IMG/VR virus record: IMGVR_UViG_3300044723_001885
Coordinates: 1 to 35,528 of that record
Source: a virus
Taxonomy: Duplodnaviria > Caudoviricetes
DNA: 35,528 bases
Direction: 5' to 3' (one strand)
Shown here piece after piece: positions 3,287 through 30,642 of the stretch (the first letter of the stretch is position 1; the number at the start of each line of letters is the position of its first letter). The translations under genes were made by a program, and so were the position numbers. The notes beneath the pieces were generated by a model. The model saw only the letters and a program-made list of their open reading frames with translations. It did no database searches and had not been told where the DNA came from.

Positions 3287-3892
3287 ATGAAACAAGTACA
3301 TATTGACCACTATATTGGTGTCTATGACAATGTTGTAGATGAAAACTATTGTAAGCAGGTGATTAGGAGATTTGAAGACATTGAGGATACATCTGGTTTT
3401 ACCCACCAAGACGGTAAAGAGCAGTTTCAAAACGGCTCACTTGGAAGACGGGACAACAGTTTATTCTTCTGTCAGGTGAGTAAGGATTTTGCAAAGGATA
3501 TTCAAGGAAAGGTTATTAATTGTTTAAATCAATATAAGCAGGATTATGTGGGGTTAGACGGGATGGGTCTTGCCTCGTTTACTTGTAAAGTACAAAGAAC
3601 AGGATCTTCTGGAGGTTATCATGTATGGCACTCAGAACATGCGGGTGATCCTGGCTCTATGAGAAGAGCCGCCGTATGGATTTTGTACCTTACAAGTCAT
3701 GAAGATTCTGGTGAAACAGAGTTTTTACAACAAGGAATAAGAGTAAAGCCACAAGCAGGTAGAGTTGTTATATGGCCAGCTAGTTTTACTCACCCTCATA
3801 GAGGTAATCCTGTTTATGACAGTGTAAAATATATTGCGACAGGCTGGTTTGAGCATTATTATGATATAGCAAGGGAAGTTGAAAATGGCTAG
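3287..3892 (+). CDS. 2OG-Fe(II) oxygenase (prolyl 4-hydroxylase-like)
   Basis: YHVWHSE (HxE), WILYL, GETEF, PQAGRVVIWPASFTHPHRG (distal His), KYIATGW. Confidence 0.85.
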   Translation: MKQVHIDHYIGVYDNVVDENYCKQVIRRFEDIEDTSGFTHQDGKEQFQNGSLGRRDNSLFFCQVSKDFAKDIQGKVINCLNQYKQDYVGLDGMGLASFTCKVQRTGSSGGYHVWHSEHAGDPGSMRRAAVWILYLTSHEDSGETEFLQQGIRVKPQAGRVVIWPASFTHPHRGNPVYDSVKYIATGWFEHYYDIAREVENG

Positions 3893-4262
3893 ATATGCAA
3901 TAGTAGAAAACGGTGTCTGTGTTAATATTGCTCAAGCAGAAGCAAATGAAGCACAAGACAACTTTGTTTTGTTGTCAGATGAAGATAATGTGGGGATTGG
4001 CTCTCCTTACAATGCTTCAACTAATACTTGGGGTGAAGTTAGTCAAAACATTTTAGCTGGAGTCAGTGATCAAAATATTGTTAACATGGCTAAACAAGAA
4101 TTAATTGACACAGACTGGACACAACTACCAGACGTTGGTTTAACAGAAGCAAATGTTTCAGAGTGGCGCACACACCGTGCCATTCTTAGAGAAATTAAAG
4201 ATGGAATTAAAGAGGTGGATCTTCATGAGTGGCCAGAAGCCCCAAGCAAGGAGTATGTGTAA
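3885..4262 (+). CDS. Tail fibre assembly chaperone-like protein
   Basis: MARYAIVENG.. N-terminus; L..TDWTQLPD...W..HR..LR..I...WPEAP C-terminus; start placed at ATG 3885. Confidence 0.7.
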   Translation: MARYAIVENGVCVNIAQAEANEAQDNFVLLSDEDNVGIGSPYNASTNTWGEVSQNILAGVSDQNIVNMAKQELIDTDWTQLPDVGLTEANVSEWRTHRAILREIKDGIKEVDLHEWPEAPSKEYV

Positions 4263-4867
4263 TGGCGTATATTATTGGAAATACAACGGTAATAGATAAT
4301 AATGCAGCTCTTGGTGCAATAGACGGTAACTCATTAAACATTGCAAACAACACTAACCTTCCGTCTGGTGGAGCTAGCACTTTATTTATAACCAGTACAT
4401 CTAACCAAGCTAATATTGGTTCAAACTATGCCTATTTAATAGGTCAAGGTGGCGGTGGTGGCGGTGGTCGTTCTGGCGATAGCCAAGCGTTTTATGGAGA
4501 CGGTGGGATGGGAGGCACTAGTTTTGCTATACCTAATGTATCCACTGGTGGAAACGCTACGTTTACCATAGGGGCTGGTGGGAATCCTGCGAATAATCAC
4601 CCTGCTAGTGGGAGTGCTGGTGGGAATACTACTTATACAGGAAATCAAACTCTTACAGTTGGCAGGGCTGGAAACGGTGGTACTTCTAGTCAAGGAAATA
4701 CTCAAACAAACCCAAGAGGCTATGACTCTTCTTTTGGTAACACTGGTGCCAATAGTGGCGGTATTTTCCAACCTGAATCAAATTACGGAGTAGGTGGAGA
4801 GGGAGGAAGACGAGTAGGACCATATGGAACAGCAGGAAGTTCAGGGGTTCTATTCGCTATAGGCTAA
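4262..4867 (+). CDS. Glycine-rich tail fibre/receptor-binding-like protein
   Basis: TAATG coupling at 4260-4264 gives MAYIIGNTTVIDN; GGGGGGG tract and TIGAGG...G.AGGNT motifs of glycine-rich virion domains. Confidence 0.65.
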   Translation: MAYIIGNTTVIDNNAALGAIDGNSLNIANNTNLPSGGASTLFITSTSNQANIGSNYAYLIGQGGGGGGGRSGDSQAFYGDGGMGGTSFAIPNVSTGGNATFTIGAGGNPANNHPASGSAGGNTTYTGNQTLTVGRAGNGGTSSQGNTQTNPRGYDSSFGNTGANSGGIFQPESNYGVGGEGGRRVGPYGTAGSSGVLFAIG

Positions 4868-5382
4868 TGAAAAAACCAATTCAAGCCCCTGGAATTGATC
4901 ACAGATTTGATGAACAGGGTTGGGTGGAACGCTTAGAGTTACCGCAAGAGGATGCTGTTAGGCGGTTAACGCCCACATTTAACTGGCTATTTGGGCACTG
5001 TAAAAACCTATTAGATACTAAGGTTTTTGACACAGTGGTAACCGATCCCTATAGAAATGGTGAAGATTTTCGAGCTTCTTGGGAAGAGGCTTTTCTTTTC
5101 CAAGGGTTTGACAATGGAAAAGCTGCTTTTCTGACTAGTAGTGTTATGTATCAAATAGACAGGCACGGTTTTGTTTCTACTGCTACTTTTCACTGGCCTG
5201 AAAAAAGAAACCCAGCCTTGGGAAACAATGAGATAATAGTAAGGCTTCAATACAAAGATCAAGAGTGTATTCCAGAAAACGACAAGTTTGGTAGAAAAGT
5301 AATACAGGGACTAACAAACCCTCGTGATTACTTGCCTAGTATAGTTATAAAACTTTTGGATGAGGACTTTGGTCAAAAATGA
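4867..5382 (+). CDS. Hypothetical protein
   Basis: Translationally coupled on both sides (TAATG, ATGA); no motif recognised. Confidence 0.6.
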   Translation: MKKPIQAPGIDHRFDEQGWVERLELPQEDAVRRLTPTFNWLFGHCKNLLDTKVFDTVVTDPYRNGEDFRASWEEAFLFQGFDNGKAAFLTSSVMYQIDRHGFVSTATFHWPEKRNPALGNNEIIVRLQYKDQECIPENDKFGRKVIQGLTNPRDYLPSIVIKLLDEDFGQK

Positions 5383-5942
5383 AACTATTTTCATTAGCAA
5401 AACATGAGTTTCCAAAAACCGTATCTATCTATAGAGGATTTTTGCCATCAAGATATTGTGAAGATATTATTCAAGCGTACAAGAAACTTAAAAAAATAGA
5501 TAACACAGGCGACAACCAAGACAACCTATTTAATACTGAAAGAACTGATTGGTTTGCTCATAACGACCCCGTTGTTAAAGACGTTGCAGGTCAAATATTT
5601 CTTGCATTTGGAAAGGGTTGTGTTTTTGATGAAATAGAGTCTAATAAAGCAGATCTGAACCTTACAAATAGTTGGATAGCTGAATCTAAAAGCGGTGCTT
5701 TTGTCGAACCGCATCACCACGGGCTTAATTTTTACAACTGTTCTTGGTCTTTTGTTTTTTACGCAAAAATACCTAATGGTATTTCTTCTCTTGTGTTTCA
5801 AGATAAAATCTGTGGTAAACATGAAATCTTAGTAAAAGAGGGCGATTTTCTTCTATTTCCTTCTGATTTTGTTCATTATACTGATGATACTTGCGAAGGT
5901 AGAACTATATACTCAGGAAACTTTAATCTGAGTTTGAGATAG
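5379..5942 (+). CDS. Putative 2OG-Fe(II) oxygenase (TIGR02466-like)
   Basis: SW....G....PHHH, SFVFY, EGDFLLFPS...H, RTIYSGN. Confidence 0.8.
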   Translation: MKLFSLAKHEFPKTVSIYRGFLPSRYCEDIIQAYKKLKKIDNTGDNQDNLFNTERTDWFAHNDPVVKDVAGQIFLAFGKGCVFDEIESNKADLNLTNSWIAESKSGAFVEPHHHGLNFYNCSWSFVFYAKIPNGISSLVFQDKICGKHEILVKEGDFLLFPSDFVHYTDDTCEGRTIYSGNFNLSLR

Positions 5943-5949
5943 GAGGAAG

Positions 5950-6483
5950 GTGTTGTCAGCAGTAGACTTATTCCCTATTAAGTGTTTTCACTTAAAAGTA
6001 GAGAACTATAAAGAAATACTAGATGAGGCTTTAACAAACAAAGAAAAAGTCAAAGAGGCTTGTGCTCAAAGCAGAGTTACAAACTCACCCAATCATTTCA
6101 CCGATTATAGTAACACCATTACTAATCACGCCTTTGAAAAACAGTTAAAGGAACGTCTTAAAATATTTTCTTTAGAAAACGAGTTTAGTATTGAGGTTCT
6201 TGAATACTGGACAGCGTTTTATGGGGAAGGTTCACAGCATGAACCGCATGTGCATACAAACGGTGTTTTTGATTCGTGCAACTACTCTGGAATATTGTAT
6301 TTATCAGATGTTGGGGGGACAACTTTTTTCCCACCCCACGGTATGACCAATGTACAAAAGACCCAGATATTTGGAAAAAACGGAGATGTGTTTCTTTTCC
6401 CATCTTCTTTGTTACATACGTTTTCCCAAATAGAACCAAAAGAAAGAGTTATAATTTCTTTTAACCTCTCACTGAAAAGTTAG
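5950..6483 (+). CDS. Putative 2OG-Fe(II) oxygenase (TIGR02466-like)
   Basis: AGGAGG RBS before GTG; W..Y..G..HEPHVH, SGILYL, GDVFLFPSSLLH, RVIISFN. Confidence 0.8.
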   Translation: MLSAVDLFPIKCFHLKVENYKEILDEALTNKEKVKEACAQSRVTNSPNHFTDYSNTITNHAFEKQLKERLKIFSLENEFSIEVLEYWTAFYGEGSQHEPHVHTNGVFDSCNYSGILYLSDVGGTTFFPPHGMTNVQKTQIFGKNGDVFLFPSSLLHTFSQIEPKERVIISFNLSLKS

Positions 6484-17853: not shown

Positions 17854-19757
17854 TATCCTACTTCTCCCCAGTTGTTGCCTAGTTCCTGATCCACCTTGCT
17901 CGGCACTTTAAGTGGCGTGCTGGTTTCCATGATCTCCGTGATTCTCGATGCTTGCTCCTTGGACTCTACATTGAAGCAGAGTTCGTCATGAACCGTGAGC
18001 AATGGCACAAGACCCTCTTTGTAGCACTCAACCATCGCGGTCTTCGTTTGGTCGGCTGCCGAACCTTGGATCAATCGGTTTAACGCCTTGTAGGTAAAGG
18101 CGCGGCGGATGTTCATGCCGTACTCTTTCTCCGCATCTTCACGCTTCATAGGCTTGTTGTAACCAAATGTCCTTGGCTCCCACATATCAAACCGACACTG
18201 CCGCCCTGACATAGTCCTGATCTTGCCGTGCTTGCTAGCCTGGTTTGACACCAGATCAGCCAACCCTTTAACAAAAGGAACTTTGGTGTGGTATTGCCCC
18301 AACAATTCGGTGGCTTCGTCTGTGCTGATGTTCATCGTGTTGGCTAGTTTAGCTTTGCCCATGCCATACATGATGCCCAGATTCACGGTCTTGGCCTGCT
18401 TGCGACTGATCCCAGCCATGTCTGCCACCATCTGGTGGAAATCCGCATCGCCTTTGTGATACTGCTCAACCAGTTCGTCAACCAACGGATGCCGCATGTT
18501 GTCGTTGAGGCTGGCGCAATAGTGCACCAAGAGCCTTGGCTCCTGACTCGAATAGTCAAAACTACCCCACTTGCAATCCTCGTCTGGGATGAACAACCCA
18601 CGGATTAACGACTTAATCTCTGGATCTCGTGCAGGGAGCTGTTGCAAATTAGGATTACTGGAACTAAACCGTCCTGTTACCGTGCCGCCATCGTCCGAAC
18701 GGAGCTGATGAAATTCGCAGTGAATGCGGCCCTTGTGGGAAAACTTTAGGATGTTATCCACAAACGTATTGCTTGCCTTATCTAGTTCACGCAAGCGCAG
18801 GATCTTTGCCGCAACAGGGTGCGGTGAGGCTTGTAGAAAGGCTTTTGTAAAAGACGGCTGACCGTTACCTTCTGTTCTGTTATAATGAAGATTATAATAG
18901 TCAAATACTTTAGCCACAGATGTTGACACCCAAGGCTCTACCTGAAAGCCTGTCTCGTGCTTGATATCTGCCACAAGATCTTTCTTTGCTGCGATCAACG
19001 CTGTTTTTGCCTGCTCGGCACCGTCTATGTTAACCTTGACTCCCGCCTCTCGCATATCAAGCATAAGAGGAATTAGGTTCGTTTCCATCTCAAACACTGT
19101 CATAAGGCTTTGCGCCTGTAGCTCCACCTTAAATCTGTTCCACAGCTTCAATGTGAGTTCGGCATCTTTCTCGGCATATGCCCCCACAAACCGTGAGTTG
19201 AGCCGCCACATCTCTGCCTTCGGATCAAAGCCGTGGTCAAGAGCCGCCGCTCTTAGAGTCTTCTCGTCCTTGCGTTCGTTTAGGTAGTCTCGCGCCAAGT
19301 TGTTAAGGCTATAGCTGAAGCGGTTCTCGTCAATAAGCGGAGCCGCTACCATGGTGTCGATTATCGTCCCTTGAATCTTGACTCCTGCCCATCGCAGCCA
19401 GCCAGCGTCATAGGTGGCATTGTGCATAATCTTAGGGATTTTAGGCGTAGCCAACTGATCTTTGAGCCATGTCATCACCTTCTTCAAAGGGATGTTGCCG
19501 CCGCCCTCGTGAGCAATAGGGTAATACCCAACAAAATCCCCAGCCGCGATAGCGATACCGACAATAAACCCATCGCTCCTAGCCCAGCCTGGGCCTAATG
19601 TCATGAGGTTTGGATCATTGGTTTCCAAGTCAATAGCGATATATTCGCTTCTGGTTAAGTCAGGGAAGACCTCTGGTGGTAACCAGTCCTGCTCTATCGT
19701 ATCTAGATCCATACGATTAAGAAAACTTAATTGGCTTTTTTCCTTCTTACTCGCCAT
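17853..19757 (-). CDS. Family A DNA polymerase with 3'-5' exonuclease
   Basis: Exo motifs AIDLET, HNATYD, YAEKDA; polymerase motifs TGRFSSSNPNLQQLP, DYSSQEPR, RKQAKTVNLGIMYG, IQGSAAD, VHDEL. Confidence 0.97.
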   Translation of the reverse strand: MASKKEKSQLSFLNRMDLDTIEQDWLPPEVFPDLTRSEYIAIDLETNDPNLMTLGPGWARSDGFIVGIAIAAGDFVGYYPIAHEGGGNIPLKKVMTWLKDQLATPKIPKIMHNATYDAGWLRWAGVKIQGTIIDTMVAAPLIDENRFSYSLNNLARDYLNERKDEKTLRAAALDHGFDPKAEMWRLNSRFVGAYAEKDAELTLKLWNRFKVELQAQSLMTVFEMETNLIPLMLDMREAGVKVNIDGAEQAKTALIAAKKDLVADIKHETGFQVEPWVSTSVAKVFDYYNLHYNRTEGNGQPSFTKAFLQASPHPVAAKILRLRELDKASNTFVDNILKFSHKGRIHCEFHQLRSDDGGTVTGRFSSSNPNLQQLPARDPEIKSLIRGLFIPDEDCKWGSFDYSSQEPRLLVHYCASLNDNMRHPLVDELVEQYHKGDADFHQMVADMAGISRKQAKTVNLGIMYGMGKAKLANTMNISTDEATELLGQYHTKVPFVKGLADLVSNQASKHGKIRTMSGRQCRFDMWEPRTFGYNKPMKREDAEKEYGMNIRRAFTYKALNRLIQGSAADQTKTAMVECYKEGLVPLLTVHDELCFNVESKEQASRITEIMETSTPLKVPSKVDQELGNNWGEVG

Positions 19758-20007
19758 TCTTTTCCCCTCCTAATGCCGCATACCCACAAAGATCAATCCA
19801 ACTGTCCGCATGATCGGTCTTCATTAAACGTGCCGCCTTAACCATGATCATACACAAAACAAACTGTTGCTCAGTGATTTCTGTGCCAAGAATAACAGAC
19901 CAGAGTTTGGCAATGTCTTGAAAGTTCTTGTGAGCATCCCCATAATCTTTGTGCCTGTCGCCGTTAACTAAACCTTTGGCTGTGTCTAATATCTCTTCAC
20001 GTTTCAT
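19747..20007 (-). CDS. DUF6378-like phage protein
   Basis: MKREEILDTAKGLVNGDR..DYGD...NF..IA.LWS...M..VK.AR......DSW.D..GYAALG; GGAG RBS before ATG 20007. Confidence 0.75.
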   Translation of the reverse strand: MKREEILDTAKGLVNGDRHKDYGDAHKNFQDIAKLWSVILGTEITEQQFVLCMIMVKAARLMKTDHADSWIDLCGYAALGGEKNGE

Positions 20008-20176
20008 GCTTATCTCCGCGTAAGTACCGTTCATGCTCCATGCCATTGTCAAAACCTTTTTGATACGCTTGGTTCAGCGCAGATGTCATCTCAGGTCCAA
20101 TCGAAAGGTTAAAACTTGTTGTGACCCTTTCACGAAAGCCCTCAATTATTTCCTCTACAAATTCATGTTTTGTCAT
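19997..20176 (-). CDS. Hypothetical protein (59 aa; absent from the ORF track)
   Basis: MTKHEFVEEII...AYQKGFDNGMEHERYLRGDKHET; ATGA overlap with the helicase stop; fills the gap exactly. Confidence 0.65.
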   Translation of the reverse strand: MTKHEFVEEIIEGFRERVTTSFNLSIGPEMTSALNQAYQKGFDNGMEHERYLRGDKHET

Positions 20177-26782: not shown

Positions 26783-26923
26783 TTATTGTGATACTGGTGG
26801 TCTTGTACCAAGTGAAAAGGGGCGGTTGATCCGCCCCTTCCTTGTATATAGTTTCTTTGATTTCACAACTCGTTGCCTGAACCTTGGCTCACGAATCTTA
26901 AGTGCTACTGGATTGCGTTTCAT
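26783..26923 (-). CDS. ArfA-like small basic protein (46 aa; absent from the ORF track)
   Basis: MKRNPVALKIREPRFRQRVVKSKKLYTRKGRINRPFSLGTRPPVSQ; aligns by eye with the core of E. coli ArfA. Confidence 0.65.
   Translation of the reverse strand: MKRNPVALKIREPRFRQRVVKSKKLYTRKGRINRPFSLGTRPPVSQ
26811..26839 (-). terminator. Intrinsic terminator inside the ArfA-like ORF (possibly bidirectional)
   Basis: Minus strand AAGGGGCGG-ATCAA-CCGCCCC-TTTTCACT; lies where the + and - units converge. Confidence 0.8.
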
Positions 26924-27077
26924 AGGCTCTTCGGATTAACACGCCAATCTGCCGCGCCATTGTCCGCTCCTCTCTGTCTGCAACTTGCCTCAACATCTCA
27001 TATGTTTCAAGAGGCACAGCCACATTACGAAACCTTGCTTTTTCTTCTACCTTTGGTCGTCCGACTGGCTTTGCCAT
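26898..27077 (-). CDS. Ribbon-helix-helix-like DNA-binding protein (59 aa; absent from the ORF track)
   Basis: MAKPVGRPKVEEKARFRNVAVPLETYEMLRQVADREERTMARQIGVLIRRAY; GRP + beta strand + two helices; AAGGAAAGG upstream. Confidence 0.7.
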   Translation of the reverse strand: MAKPVGRPKVEEKARFRNVAVPLETYEMLRQVADREERTMARQIGVLIRRAYETQSSST

Positions 27078-27690
27078 CTACCTTTCCTTTCTTCTTTGCG
27101 TGATACTTTTCTCTCGCCTTGCGGTTTCTTTCTAGTCGGGCGGCTTCACTTCTTTTTCTGTCCTTCGCCGACTTCTTTTTTAACGCTTCCCGTTCCTCTG
27201 GACTCAAGTGCGAGTTGTATAGAGCATACTCCACCCCGAACAACGCATTGAGACCTGGCTCTAGCTCCTTGGCTAGTTGTGCTCTTGGGATGTTCGTGTG
27301 TGATGACTTAGCATCCCTCAAGTCCTTCCGTATCTCCCTATCCCATGCGTGTTCAAACGCTTCTCGAAGCTCCTCGTCTGGTTCTTCTTCGGGTTCGGGT
27401 TCAGGTGCATCCTCGTCATCACGAAAAAAATCATCTTCAGGTTCTGGCAATTTGTTTTTTAACTTCTGCCAGATCGCCCTGTCTCTTTCTTCGTTGATCT
27501 TGGCTCTGATCTGAGTTTCCTTTGGATCTCGATACACCATCCCCTCTGGATCGTACTTCAGTCCCATTTCGTCTACTACGGCTACCAGATTGGCGATCAT
27601 CCTTAGATCTCCGTCCTCCAGAATGTACCGTATCGACTTTCCTCGTAGCAGGTTTAGTGTGTCGTTTACTAATACTTGTTGTTTGTACAT
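27025..27690 (-). CDS. Hypothetical protein with an acidic linker, a capsid-N-terminus-like peptide and a basic tail
   Basis: AAGGAGG RBS; EPEPEEEP tract, RAQLAKELEPGLNALFGVEY, K/R-rich end. Confidence 0.7.
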   Translation of the reverse strand: MYKQQVLVNDTLNLLRGKSIRYILEDGDLRMIANLVAVVDEMGLKYDPEGMVYRDPKETQIRAKINEERDRAIWQKLKNKLPEPEDDFFRDDEDAPEPEPEEEPDEELREAFEHAWDREIRKDLRDAKSSHTNIPRAQLAKELEPGLNALFGVEYALYNSHLSPEEREALKKKSAKDRKRSEAARLERNRKAREKYHAKKKGKVDGKASRTTKGRRKSKVS

Positions 27691-27886
27691 CTTTGTGCCT
27701 CCTTATCTCGACTTCGATGTAGTATCCATGATGACCGTCCCCTCGCCTCGGAATACTCGCTTCCTCATCGAGCAGATCAATCACCTTCTCTAATTCGGTG
27801 GGTTTTGCTACCACCTCTTTCACAACTTTGCACCGATTAGAATACAAAGTAATTGTGAAGTCCAGTATTTTATTTGCGTTTTTCAA
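27437..27886 (-). CDS. Hypothetical protein (C-terminal part overlaps the next gene)
   Basis: TTG start overlapping the upstream stop; the first ~65 aa look globular and the rest overlaps 27025-27690. Confidence 0.45.
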   Translation of the reverse strand: MKNANKILDFTITLYSNRCKVVKEVVAKPTELEKVIDLLDEEASIPRRGDGHHGYYIEVEIRRHKDVQTTSISKRHTKPATRKVDTVHSGGRRSKDDRQSGSRSRRNGTEVRSRGDGVSRSKGNSDQSQDQRRKRQGDLAEVKKQIART

Positions 27887-28327: not shown

Positions 28328-28471
28328 TTACTCTTCGATGCATGGTTTTTTATCTTTAACCTTCTCCTTTGCGGATTTCATTATGTTGACTATTGACCGC
28401 CCCCTGCTTCTAAACTTAGACAGCTTCTTAACCTTTGGGACTTTCAACAGTTCCTGTAATTCTTTATTCAT
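28328..28471 (-). CDS. Small Lys-rich hypothetical protein
   Basis: MNKELQELLKVPKVKK...; start overlaps the end of the upstream gene. Confidence 0.4.
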   Translation of the reverse strand: MNKELQELLKVPKVKKLSKFRSRGRSIVNIMKSAKEKVKDKKPCIEE

Positions 28472-28715
28472 CTTCGACAAGGTATCCCTCCCCTTCACAA
28501 GTGTCACAGGTATCCATGTACCCTTCCAGATATCCGCCATTGTTCCAGTCAACGACAGAGCGTTCATATTCGCATTCCCCCTCGCCACCGCACTCAGGAC
28601 ATAAAACATATCCTGAGTCCAACATACTTTGGTGATGCTTTCTTTTTATCTCGCGGCGCAACTCATGATGTTTTTTCATCTGAGCCGCTAGTTCCTTCGC
28701 TGTCAGGTTTCGCAT
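28464..28715 (-). CDS. DnaJ-type zinc-finger protein
   Basis: CPECGGEG and CDTCEGEG (CxxCxGxG twice). Confidence 0.75.
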   Translation of the reverse strand: MRNLTAKELAAQMKKHHELRREIKRKHHQSMLDSGYVLCPECGGEGECEYERSVVDWNNGGYLEGYMDTCDTCEGEGYLVEDE

Positions 28716-30066: not shown

Positions 30067-30467
30067 GCCGCTACTCCTTCCCTGAGTAACATATGATCCA
30101 ACGATACGGCTTCTTCCTCAAGCCACCGACTGCCCATCTCAGCACAACTCACTCGCCTATATACTTGAACCATGAGCCTGTCGGTAAAGCCTACCACATA
30201 GCAGTAGTCACACCACGACATCTCCGCCATCAACTCCCACCGATCCTTGTATGGTGGGATCAAACGAATGCCGCCGCCCTCCTGACACTTGTTCGCCGCA
30301 ACAAACGCCGCACCGAACTCATCAGCCTCGAACCTCGGCAGTCGCCACGCATGAGCCTTCGCCGCCTCAATAAACTGAGCCGCACCGCTCGGGTAACTGT
30401 CGTAATGCTTGTAAACAGCAACCTCATCATGTCCATCTTCGAAAATAAAAATCCCTCTAGTTCCCAT
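30063..30467 (-). CDS. Conserved hypothetical phage protein
   Basis: MGTR..........VY.HYD.YP.G pattern; AAGGAGG RBS. Confidence 0.7.
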   Translation of the reverse strand: MGTRGIFIFEDGHDEVAVYKHYDSYPSGAAQFIEAAKAHAWRLPRFEADEFGAAFVAANKCQEGGGIRLIPPYKDRWELMAEMSWCDYCYVVGFTDRLMVQVYRRVSCAEMGSRWLEEEAVSLDHMLLREGVAA

Positions 30468-30642
30468 GATCTGCCTCCTTCACATATTGGAACTCATAAC
30501 CAGAGCCGTGGCACTCGTTACACGATACCACAGCCCCATCCTCTGTCGGTTCATACCCATGACCACCACACCAGTCACAGGTTAAACCGAACACGATCCG
30601 AGTGCCTTGAACCTCGAACCTCGCTTCTTGCCGCGCTTCCAT
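30457..30642 (-). CDS. DnaJ-type zinc-finger protein
   Basis: CDWCGGHG and CNECHGSG; TAATG coupling. Confidence 0.7.
   Translation of the reverse strand: MEARQEARFEVQGTRIVFGLTCDWCGGHGYEPTEDGAVVSCNECHGSGYEFQYVKEADHGN

Follow-up and report, generated by a model that had tools for sequence, protein, structure and literature searches.

The internal-protein genes of phage T4 are early genes and lie outside the head cluster. Their products IPI, IPII and IPIII are unrelated, small, basic and dispensable proteins that share a short peptide, the capsid-targeting sequence (CTS), which loads them into the prohead (PMC9026906). In Family 1 encapsulins, cargo-loading peptides of 10-20 residues bind inside an HK97-fold shell, at a site made by the N-helix and the P-domain (PMC11664910). 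In phage P22, the C-terminal helix-turn-helix of the scaffold gp8 binds the helical N-arm of the coat protein, and this arm unfolds on expansion (PMC9965877). Immune triggers can also be met by competition: DSAD1 is an inhibitor of DSR2 that competes with its trigger (PMC11087589). Here we describe a podovirus locus in which the N-arm of the major capsid protein (MCP) recurs inside a non-capsid protein.

The window, by which we mean the whole 35.5-kb stretch of DNA analysed, is a fragment of an HTVC023P-type podovirus genome (61% complete) with close matches in estuary metagenomes. Tail and ejection genes on the plus strand are followed by PolA (51% to HTVC023P), primase and helicases, and then by small genes on the minus strand. 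As in HTVC023P, three 2OG-Fe(II) oxygenase genes sit amid the tail-fibre genes (3287-6483, plus strand). Two small CxxCxGxG zinc-binding proteins are encoded at 28464-28715 and 30457-30642 (minus strand), with weak DnaJ-central and anti-TRAP matches below the cut-off. Promoter and terminator matches in the window were at chance level. A GC-rich hairpin at 26817-26839 (plus strand), within a small frame at 26783-26923, is terminator-like, in a count at chance level, and lies at the convergence of plus- and minus-strand transcription.

A first-pass annotation had pointed out a 28-residue capsid-like peptide flanked by an acidic tract and a K/R-rich tail in the minus-strand ORF at 27025-27690. 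We located it, with these flanks, at residues 134-161 (27291..27208); its capsid-like portion is I134-Y155 and its best-matching 20-mer R136-Y155. The locus contains the following features.

27025..27690, minus strand: carrier gene (family A), 221 aa, with a conserved N-domain, a variable acidic linker, the capsid N-arm copy, and a basic helix and tail
27698..27704, minus strand: Shine-Dalgarno-like purine run, 7 nt ahead of the ATG
27526..27690, minus strand: N-terminal domain of ~55 aa, modelled as a helix-helix-beta hairpin
27361..27444, minus strand: acidic proline-rich linker, which most homologues lack and which some have behind the peptide
27226..27291, minus strand: copy of the MCP N-arm helix, I134-Y155, with its core 20-mer R136-Y155 at 27226-27285
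27097..27147, minus strand: residues 182-198, a conserved basic helix preceding the K/R-rich tail (dN/dS 0.11)
26898..27077, minus strand: ribbon-helix-helix gene downstream of the carrier (PF07878, E=3e-7)
27437..27886, minus strand: conserved upstream gene whose frame extends over the carrier N-domain and stops short of the peptide

The carrier ORF had no Pfam or PHROG match, and 963 proteins matched it at E<=0.01. The N-domain also exists without the peptide, in proteins of 68-77 aa that end in an AT-hook-like basic motif (PF02178 E=0.061, 13.7 bits, below the cut-off of 17.4). A fold search with a family-A model, built from a 132-aa homologue, returned generic helical hairpins (best Z 6.3) and no assignment, and the peptide-less form had no usable match in the ESM Atlas. 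From its composition, the basic helix 182-198 may bind nucleic acid. A loose ribbon-helix-helix motif lies downstream in 57 of 58 closed loci, and the locus is syntenic with and without the peptide. On two contigs (L151:10413-10592 and L278:1807-2031, carrier strand), the gene two places downstream of family A encodes an amphipathic N-helix and an AT-hook-like tail; it resembles the peptide-bearing family I described below, which suggests hopping between neighbour genes. The upstream gene (27437-27886, ~65 aa) has its frame open over the carrier N-domain in 49 of the 50 loci having the gene, with no stops where 3-4 are expected (P ~0.005-0.025 per locus, for 8 related loci that are not independent), and the extension is likely a real overlapping basic tail. 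We rejected constraint from this overlapping frame as the source of peptide conservation, since the two frames part at 27437, ahead of the peptide, and it is the third positions of the carrier frame that vary.

When the whole ORF was searched by tblastn against 50,697 phage records, all nine matches fell within query positions 134-182. Seven lay in annotated capsid or head genes and two in hypothetical proteins, in every case where an MCP query also matched. Each of these nine cultured or deposited records matched at one place, the MCP, and none held a second copy. The identity is to MCP residues 3-24; similarity stops at the arm, and the carrier ORF has no HK97-fold body and no match to a capsid family. 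The window holds a single copy of the peptide and no MCP gene, the capsid gene lying beyond it as the first-pass annotation had stated. An MCP start is present in a near-identical phage, G001, which is 99.8% identical to the window across 18,502 nt. Past the window, G001 encodes terminase, portal and GroES, then a scaffold candidate of 302 aa and two more genes, and reaches the first 27 codons of its MCP at the contig edge (labels other than GroES were assigned by motif and HTVC023P gene order). The copy shares 18 of 20 residues and 41 of 60 nucleotides with the G001 MCP, and 13 of the 18 shared-residue codons differ. Over these 20 codons, copies compared with their own MCPs gave, as identical residues/differing codons, 18/13 (G001), 18/12 (G002), 18/14 (G006), 18/12 (G007) and 18/13 (G018) in family A, 16/11, 14/8 and 14/8 in family B and 19/14 in family D. 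At the level of sequence, these comparisons establish the segment as a copy of the MCP N-arm helix derived from the MCP 5' end. The earlier proposal of a captured capsid N-arm is borne out, and the idea that the peptide fails to match capsid proteins is dismissed.

An exact 15-residue match in the six frames of the window has a chance expectation of ~1e-14. A contig from a second estuary sample crosses the peptide and both flanks with no differences, which excludes misassembly. RNA runs yielded small shares and contigs only, with none bridging the peptide within the carrier gene. All nine carrier records long enough to include an MCP hold one of the HTVC023P type, to which G001 adds a 5' end, and each of the six carrier genomes at least 90% complete has an HTVC023P-type MCP and one copy. 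The MCP gene at G006:C1:17696-18594 was matched piecewise with in-frame stops, probably a frameshift or an assembly error.

Within family A, the best 120 of the 963 homologues, a list ranked by similarity and therefore favouring peptide bearers, comprise 109 that keep the 11-residue core under the strict pattern, five with one Glu-to-Gln change, three diverged and three with the core lost or deleted. Loci found by the N-domain pattern gave 70 distinct DNAs and 66 closed frames: 51 with the peptide, 11 short forms (N-domain and AT-hook-like tail), two partial deletions, one loss and one frameshift. Peptide-less versions occupy the same locus as peptide bearers, and in this unrooted comparison the short form appears ancestral. 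For 49 of the 52 distinct peptide-bearing DNAs, dN/dS was 0.12 in the 20-mer, 0.04 in the 11-residue core, 0.18 in the N-domain and 0.11 in the basic helix; the core value is biased low because two diverged copies and a truncated one were excluded. Third codon positions of the carrier frame hold 62% of the pairwise differences. Linker lengths vary widely, and the site that is Leu or Met in 119 of 119 sampled MCPs is unconstrained in the copies. The peptide was lost or degraded in at least four lineages. One family-A lineage (L006:3256-3711; P0080, P0101, P0102), with a shortened copy, replaced Gly positions and an acidic tract after the copy, is a natural loss-of-function candidate. The substitution pattern establishes that purifying selection at the protein level keeps the copy despite saturated synonymous change. 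The protein and DNA comparison with the phage's own capsid gene, proposed by the first-pass annotation as a sign of selection, gave the anticipated outcome, and its counter-case of a one-off insertion decaying neutrally and absent from homologues did not hold.

We wondered how widely the peptide occurs outside capsid genes. A plain motif scan of IMG/VR gave an estimated ~17,000 stretches, and all 119 recovered were MCPs. A relaxed N-arm scan (with a non-hydrophobic relaxed position) recovered 120 of ~160 loci, among which 42 were non-capsid: besides 78 MCPs there were 11 family-A loci and 31 in five other architectures. All 22 loci found with a second pattern were non-capsid and added families G and H. 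Searching 1.84 billion representatives with a profile yielded 391 matches; the best 150 include 11 internal non-capsid copies and added families I, J and K. The carriers beyond family A are as follows.

Family B: AlpA/HTH_17 with a hydrophobic C-terminus
Family C: GcrA/Myb-like HTH with a hydrophobic C-terminus
Family D: winged HTH
Families E and F: DUF6378 preceded or followed by the peptide, F having a zinc-finger-like tail
Family G: basic repeats and DUF6378
Family H: holin-like membrane protein, between portal and GroES
Family I: amphipathic helix and basic AT-hook-like tail
Family J: zinc ribbon
Family K: DnaA C-terminal HTH, one sequence

The product of family H, which had no PHROG match, we take to be holin-like from its motif and position. 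A DNA-context scan for family I gave MCP starts alone (79 of 80 recognised by the profile and the remaining one truncated), so the evidence for families I, J and K comes from protein records, in clusters of 4 and 2 members for I, 4 for J and 1 for K. Among the best 150 profile matches, 64 begin with the capsid N-terminus followed by unrelated or short sequence; these, and five of the 16 internal matches, were read as truncated or chimeric gene calls and left uncounted. The window encodes a PHROG 474 member without the peptide just before PolA (19747-20052, minus strand); families E, F and G bear the peptide on PHROG 474.

With ten architectures beyond family A (11 in total), mostly small basic DNA-binding-type proteins, the survey called for by the first-pass annotation revealed a recurrent module, which that annotation had missed. 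In its label of an early non-structural gene, "early" is a matter of gene position. The peptide is inserted in linkers of at least eight gene types known in DNA context, and ten carrier types lie outside the head module as far as seen (neighbourhoods of A-F; H is between portal and GroES). Two control MCP motifs put through the same relaxed scan gave no copies in 130 loci, 117 of 120 and 10 of 10 being MCPs; the three others, from one enzyme family read as asparagine synthetase, were rejected as a chance match. Non-capsid copies are rare, with ~56 scaled stretches (a lower bound) against ~17,000 motif-bearing ones. In 12 of 13 example carriers the peptide is internal or C-terminal (residue 136 in the window carrier), and 12 of 13, spanning 68-255 aa, are net basic. 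A strongly hydrophobic 19-residue segment is present in three of the 11 architectures (B, C and H), and B, J and one I variant lack the terminal Tyr or Glu-Tyr. The core invariance in B-F is a product of the search pattern. At a site where 73 of 119 sampled MCPs carry Val, Ala is found in every one of the 42 non-capsid copies, and carrier loci have a GC content of mostly 44-52%, with one at 39%.

On a quick MCP tree, four changes are required to account for seven carrier rows (types A, B, D and H) and are forced by well-supported branches, which argues for multiple insertions. Family A, family E and one family-I protein have flanks in common, so the cassette may also move from carrier to carrier, and the copies need not all be fresh captures from an MCP. 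Family H shows a recent capture from the MCP 5' end: copy and MCP of the same phage use different codons at 3 of 18 positions, and the captured segment includes the MCP start codon. In L359:972-1268 (minus strand), L366 and L375, the MCP 5' end is fused in frame before the holin-like gene's own ribosome site and start, and carries a 15-nt tandem repeat.

To see where such an arm might sit, we turned to structural models. The G002 MCP model (pLDDT 80) has its N-arm as helix 5-25; Foldseek placed HK97-fold capsids and encapsulins on top (E ~2e-9, TM ~0.5), with a PF25209 match, while the PDB held no sequence match to the MCP or to its profile. The 302-aa ORF is a putative scaffold by gene position and its conserved C-terminal motif. 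Co-folding with scaffold and capsid, another suggestion of the first-pass annotation, was run as a three-chain job with the arm-less MCP (28-303) of the relative G002, the 40-residue scaffold C-terminus and the 32-residue peptide of the window. The complex scored 0.74 (runs 0.73, 0.74 and 0.78) against 0.05 for the best of three controls, with partner pLDDT of at least 76 and contact agreement between runs of at least 88%; the mark, which 116 of 157 solved pairs and 2 of 215 mismatched ones attained, applies only roughly to three chains. The copy is predicted at MCP 99-119 and 266-283, the HK97 P-domain region, as a split-gene-like pass. In the model it lies in a groove of the spine helix and P-domain, with its Leu, Phe, Gly, Glu and Tyr contacting MCP 107-115 and 281-283 and its terminal Tyr/Glu-Tyr on the spine helix. 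The C-terminal helix-turn-helix of the scaffold packs on the Pro-Gly/Ala face, where Pro, Gly, Ala and Leu of the copy make the predicted contacts; three of the contacted scaffold residues (Ala, Leu and Tyr) are invariant in 21 scaffold ends. When the MCP body was replaced as a control, the score was 0.05. A pair of peptide and scaffold alone is thus unsupported, which is no evidence against binding. Docking of a near-identical arm in an emptied groove is expected, and the high score speaks for likeness rather than for binding in the cell. In family A, P, G and A on the scaffold face and L, F, G and Y on the MCP face are near-invariant. This conservation of both faces, where the DNA search did not impose the core, suggests a partner that grips the helix all round: MCP and scaffold, or a host protein that would engulf the arm.

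We favour, with a probability of roughly 0.45, that the copy is a capsid-docking tag working like the T4 capsid-targeting sequences but made of the capsid itself. The copy would sit in the N-arm groove of the MCP with the scaffold C-terminal hairpin on its other face, replacing the native arm of certain subunits while the capsid assembles, or once that arm quits the groove at expansion. The small basic carrier would thereby be held on the inner capsid wall and packaged, and possibly delivered with the DNA like T4 internal proteins. In favour of docking are the mostly small and basic carriers, the fit in the model and the precedents set by T4 CTS and encapsulin tags. Against it, the native arm, being in cis, should win over a copy supplied in trans, the hydrophobic segments of B, C and H look awkward for packaging, ten carrier types lie outside the head module as far as seen, the trait is rare and in several lineages lost or degraded, the terminal Tyr is lost in B, J and one I variant, and the carriers are so varied that their identity may not matter, which fits a decoy equally. 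Among the functions offered by the first-pass annotation, targeting into proheads thus gains predicted support; we favour simple competition for the scaffold less, since the residues facing the groove, and not just those facing the scaffold, are conserved. It is very unlikely that the copy interferes with co-infecting relatives by poisoning how they assemble: the arm is nearly universal in the capsid family (an MCP at each of the 119 motif loci sampled) and one peptide could hit many, but it would strike the identical arm of the carrier phage's own MCP, so the carrier pays first.

These objections, together with the patchy distribution and the skew to Ala-type copies and higher GC, are why we keep a decoy right behind docking, tentative though it is. 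A free arm copy made before capsid synthesis would occupy a host capsid sensor without triggering it. A phage would make such a copy because its N-arm, fixed by groove and scaffold, is unable to mutate away, and any dispensable small protein could carry it. Insertion is indifferent to the carrier across the gene types known in DNA context, membrane anchors are no hindrance, and the GC range and the all-Ala copies hint at lineage or host dependence. Against this, in the Lit/Gol system, where a structural protein is the immune trigger, the T4 Gol peptide activates Lit and does not block it. A host search of GTDB contigs found no family-A relative among 62 pattern matches, and in the model MCP and scaffold already account for the conserved surfaces. 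MCP sensors are known (10.64898/2026.01.04.697583) and DSAD1 is a trigger-competing inhibitor (PMC11087589), but Avs7 is described as binding the entire MCP monomer. Rather improbable is assembly-coupled control, in which free scaffold and MCP bind the copy, so that a DNA-bound regulator or a lysis protein is titrated by late proteins, or, as a variant of the same reading, the carrier slows assembly or keeps proheads close to the DNA of the phage or to a membrane. The presence of HTH, zinc-finger or basic motifs in most carriers, the ribbon-helix-helix gene beside family A and a holin-like carrier would fit, but a single logic is hard to extend across AlpA-, GcrA-, wHTH-, DUF6378- and holin-like proteins, and the recent holin-like case retains a second ribosome site and start. 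A neutral by-product of frequent MCP 5'-end duplication, or convergence, has the least to recommend it. The fresh family-H capture with its start codon and short tandem repeat, and the deleted or degraded copies, are what it would produce; synonymous saturation with 18 of 20 residues kept, the excess of third-position differences and the absence of copies of two other MCP motifs oppose it. It is contradicted for family A and possible for family H alone. All other explanations together deserve hardly any weight.

Together, the analyses confirm from the genes that the copy is real, selected and recurrent. On balance, it is probable that the N-arm is a portable cassette among unrelated accessory genes, which either swaps for the arm in the capsid/scaffold site or decoys a host sensor; structural-motif self-mimicry would then be a general phage strategy, in one of the ocean's most abundant capsid families. 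We found no description of capsid N-arm copies in accessory proteins in the literature searched, where supplementary gene tables may list carriers as hypothetical. A 20-residue motif that is repeatedly inserted and selected is a natural experiment naming a binding site that matters beyond shell building. As a loading tag it would be a second capsid-targeting principle after the T4 CTS, in a globally abundant phage group; as a decoy, a ready-made 20-residue bait for a capsid sensor in marine bacteria, with phages answering immunity by copying its trigger. The search recipe (a conserved virion motif with a relaxed flank) is applicable to other phage families.

How, then, does the carrier peptide compare with known systems? 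By sequence criteria it falls outside every family tested. Like T4 internal proteins, the carriers are small, basic (12 of 13 examples net basic) and unrelated bodies sharing one tag. The T4 CTS is an N-terminal propeptide of 10-19 residues that binds the core and is cleaved (PMC9026906), whereas the peptide here is mostly internal, has no known cleavage and copies the capsid protein, and its loading is predicted. The MCP has the HK97 fold of encapsulins, yet encapsulin tags, as far as described, are terminal and lie beside the N-helix, whereas the peptide is itself the N-helix, for which it is predicted to substitute, internally and in a phage genome rather than terminally in a cellular encapsulin operon. 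The scaffold hairpin on the N-arm is the P22 arrangement, predicted here with mainly hydrophobic contacts instead of the acidic/basic pairs described for P22, and with the arm duplicated outside the coat gene. The decoy alternative has parallels in the MCP sensors Avs7/8/10 and CapRel, for which structural proteins are immune triggers, and in DSAD1, a phage protein in competition with a trigger (PMC11087589; 10.64898/2026.01.04.697583); the available account of DSAD1 does not state that it copies its trigger's sequence. Finally, the phage resembles HTVC023P-type and CRP-901-type marine podoviruses in MCP family, PolA, GroES and gene order, but where the nine matched records hold the MCP copy alone, it carries a second.
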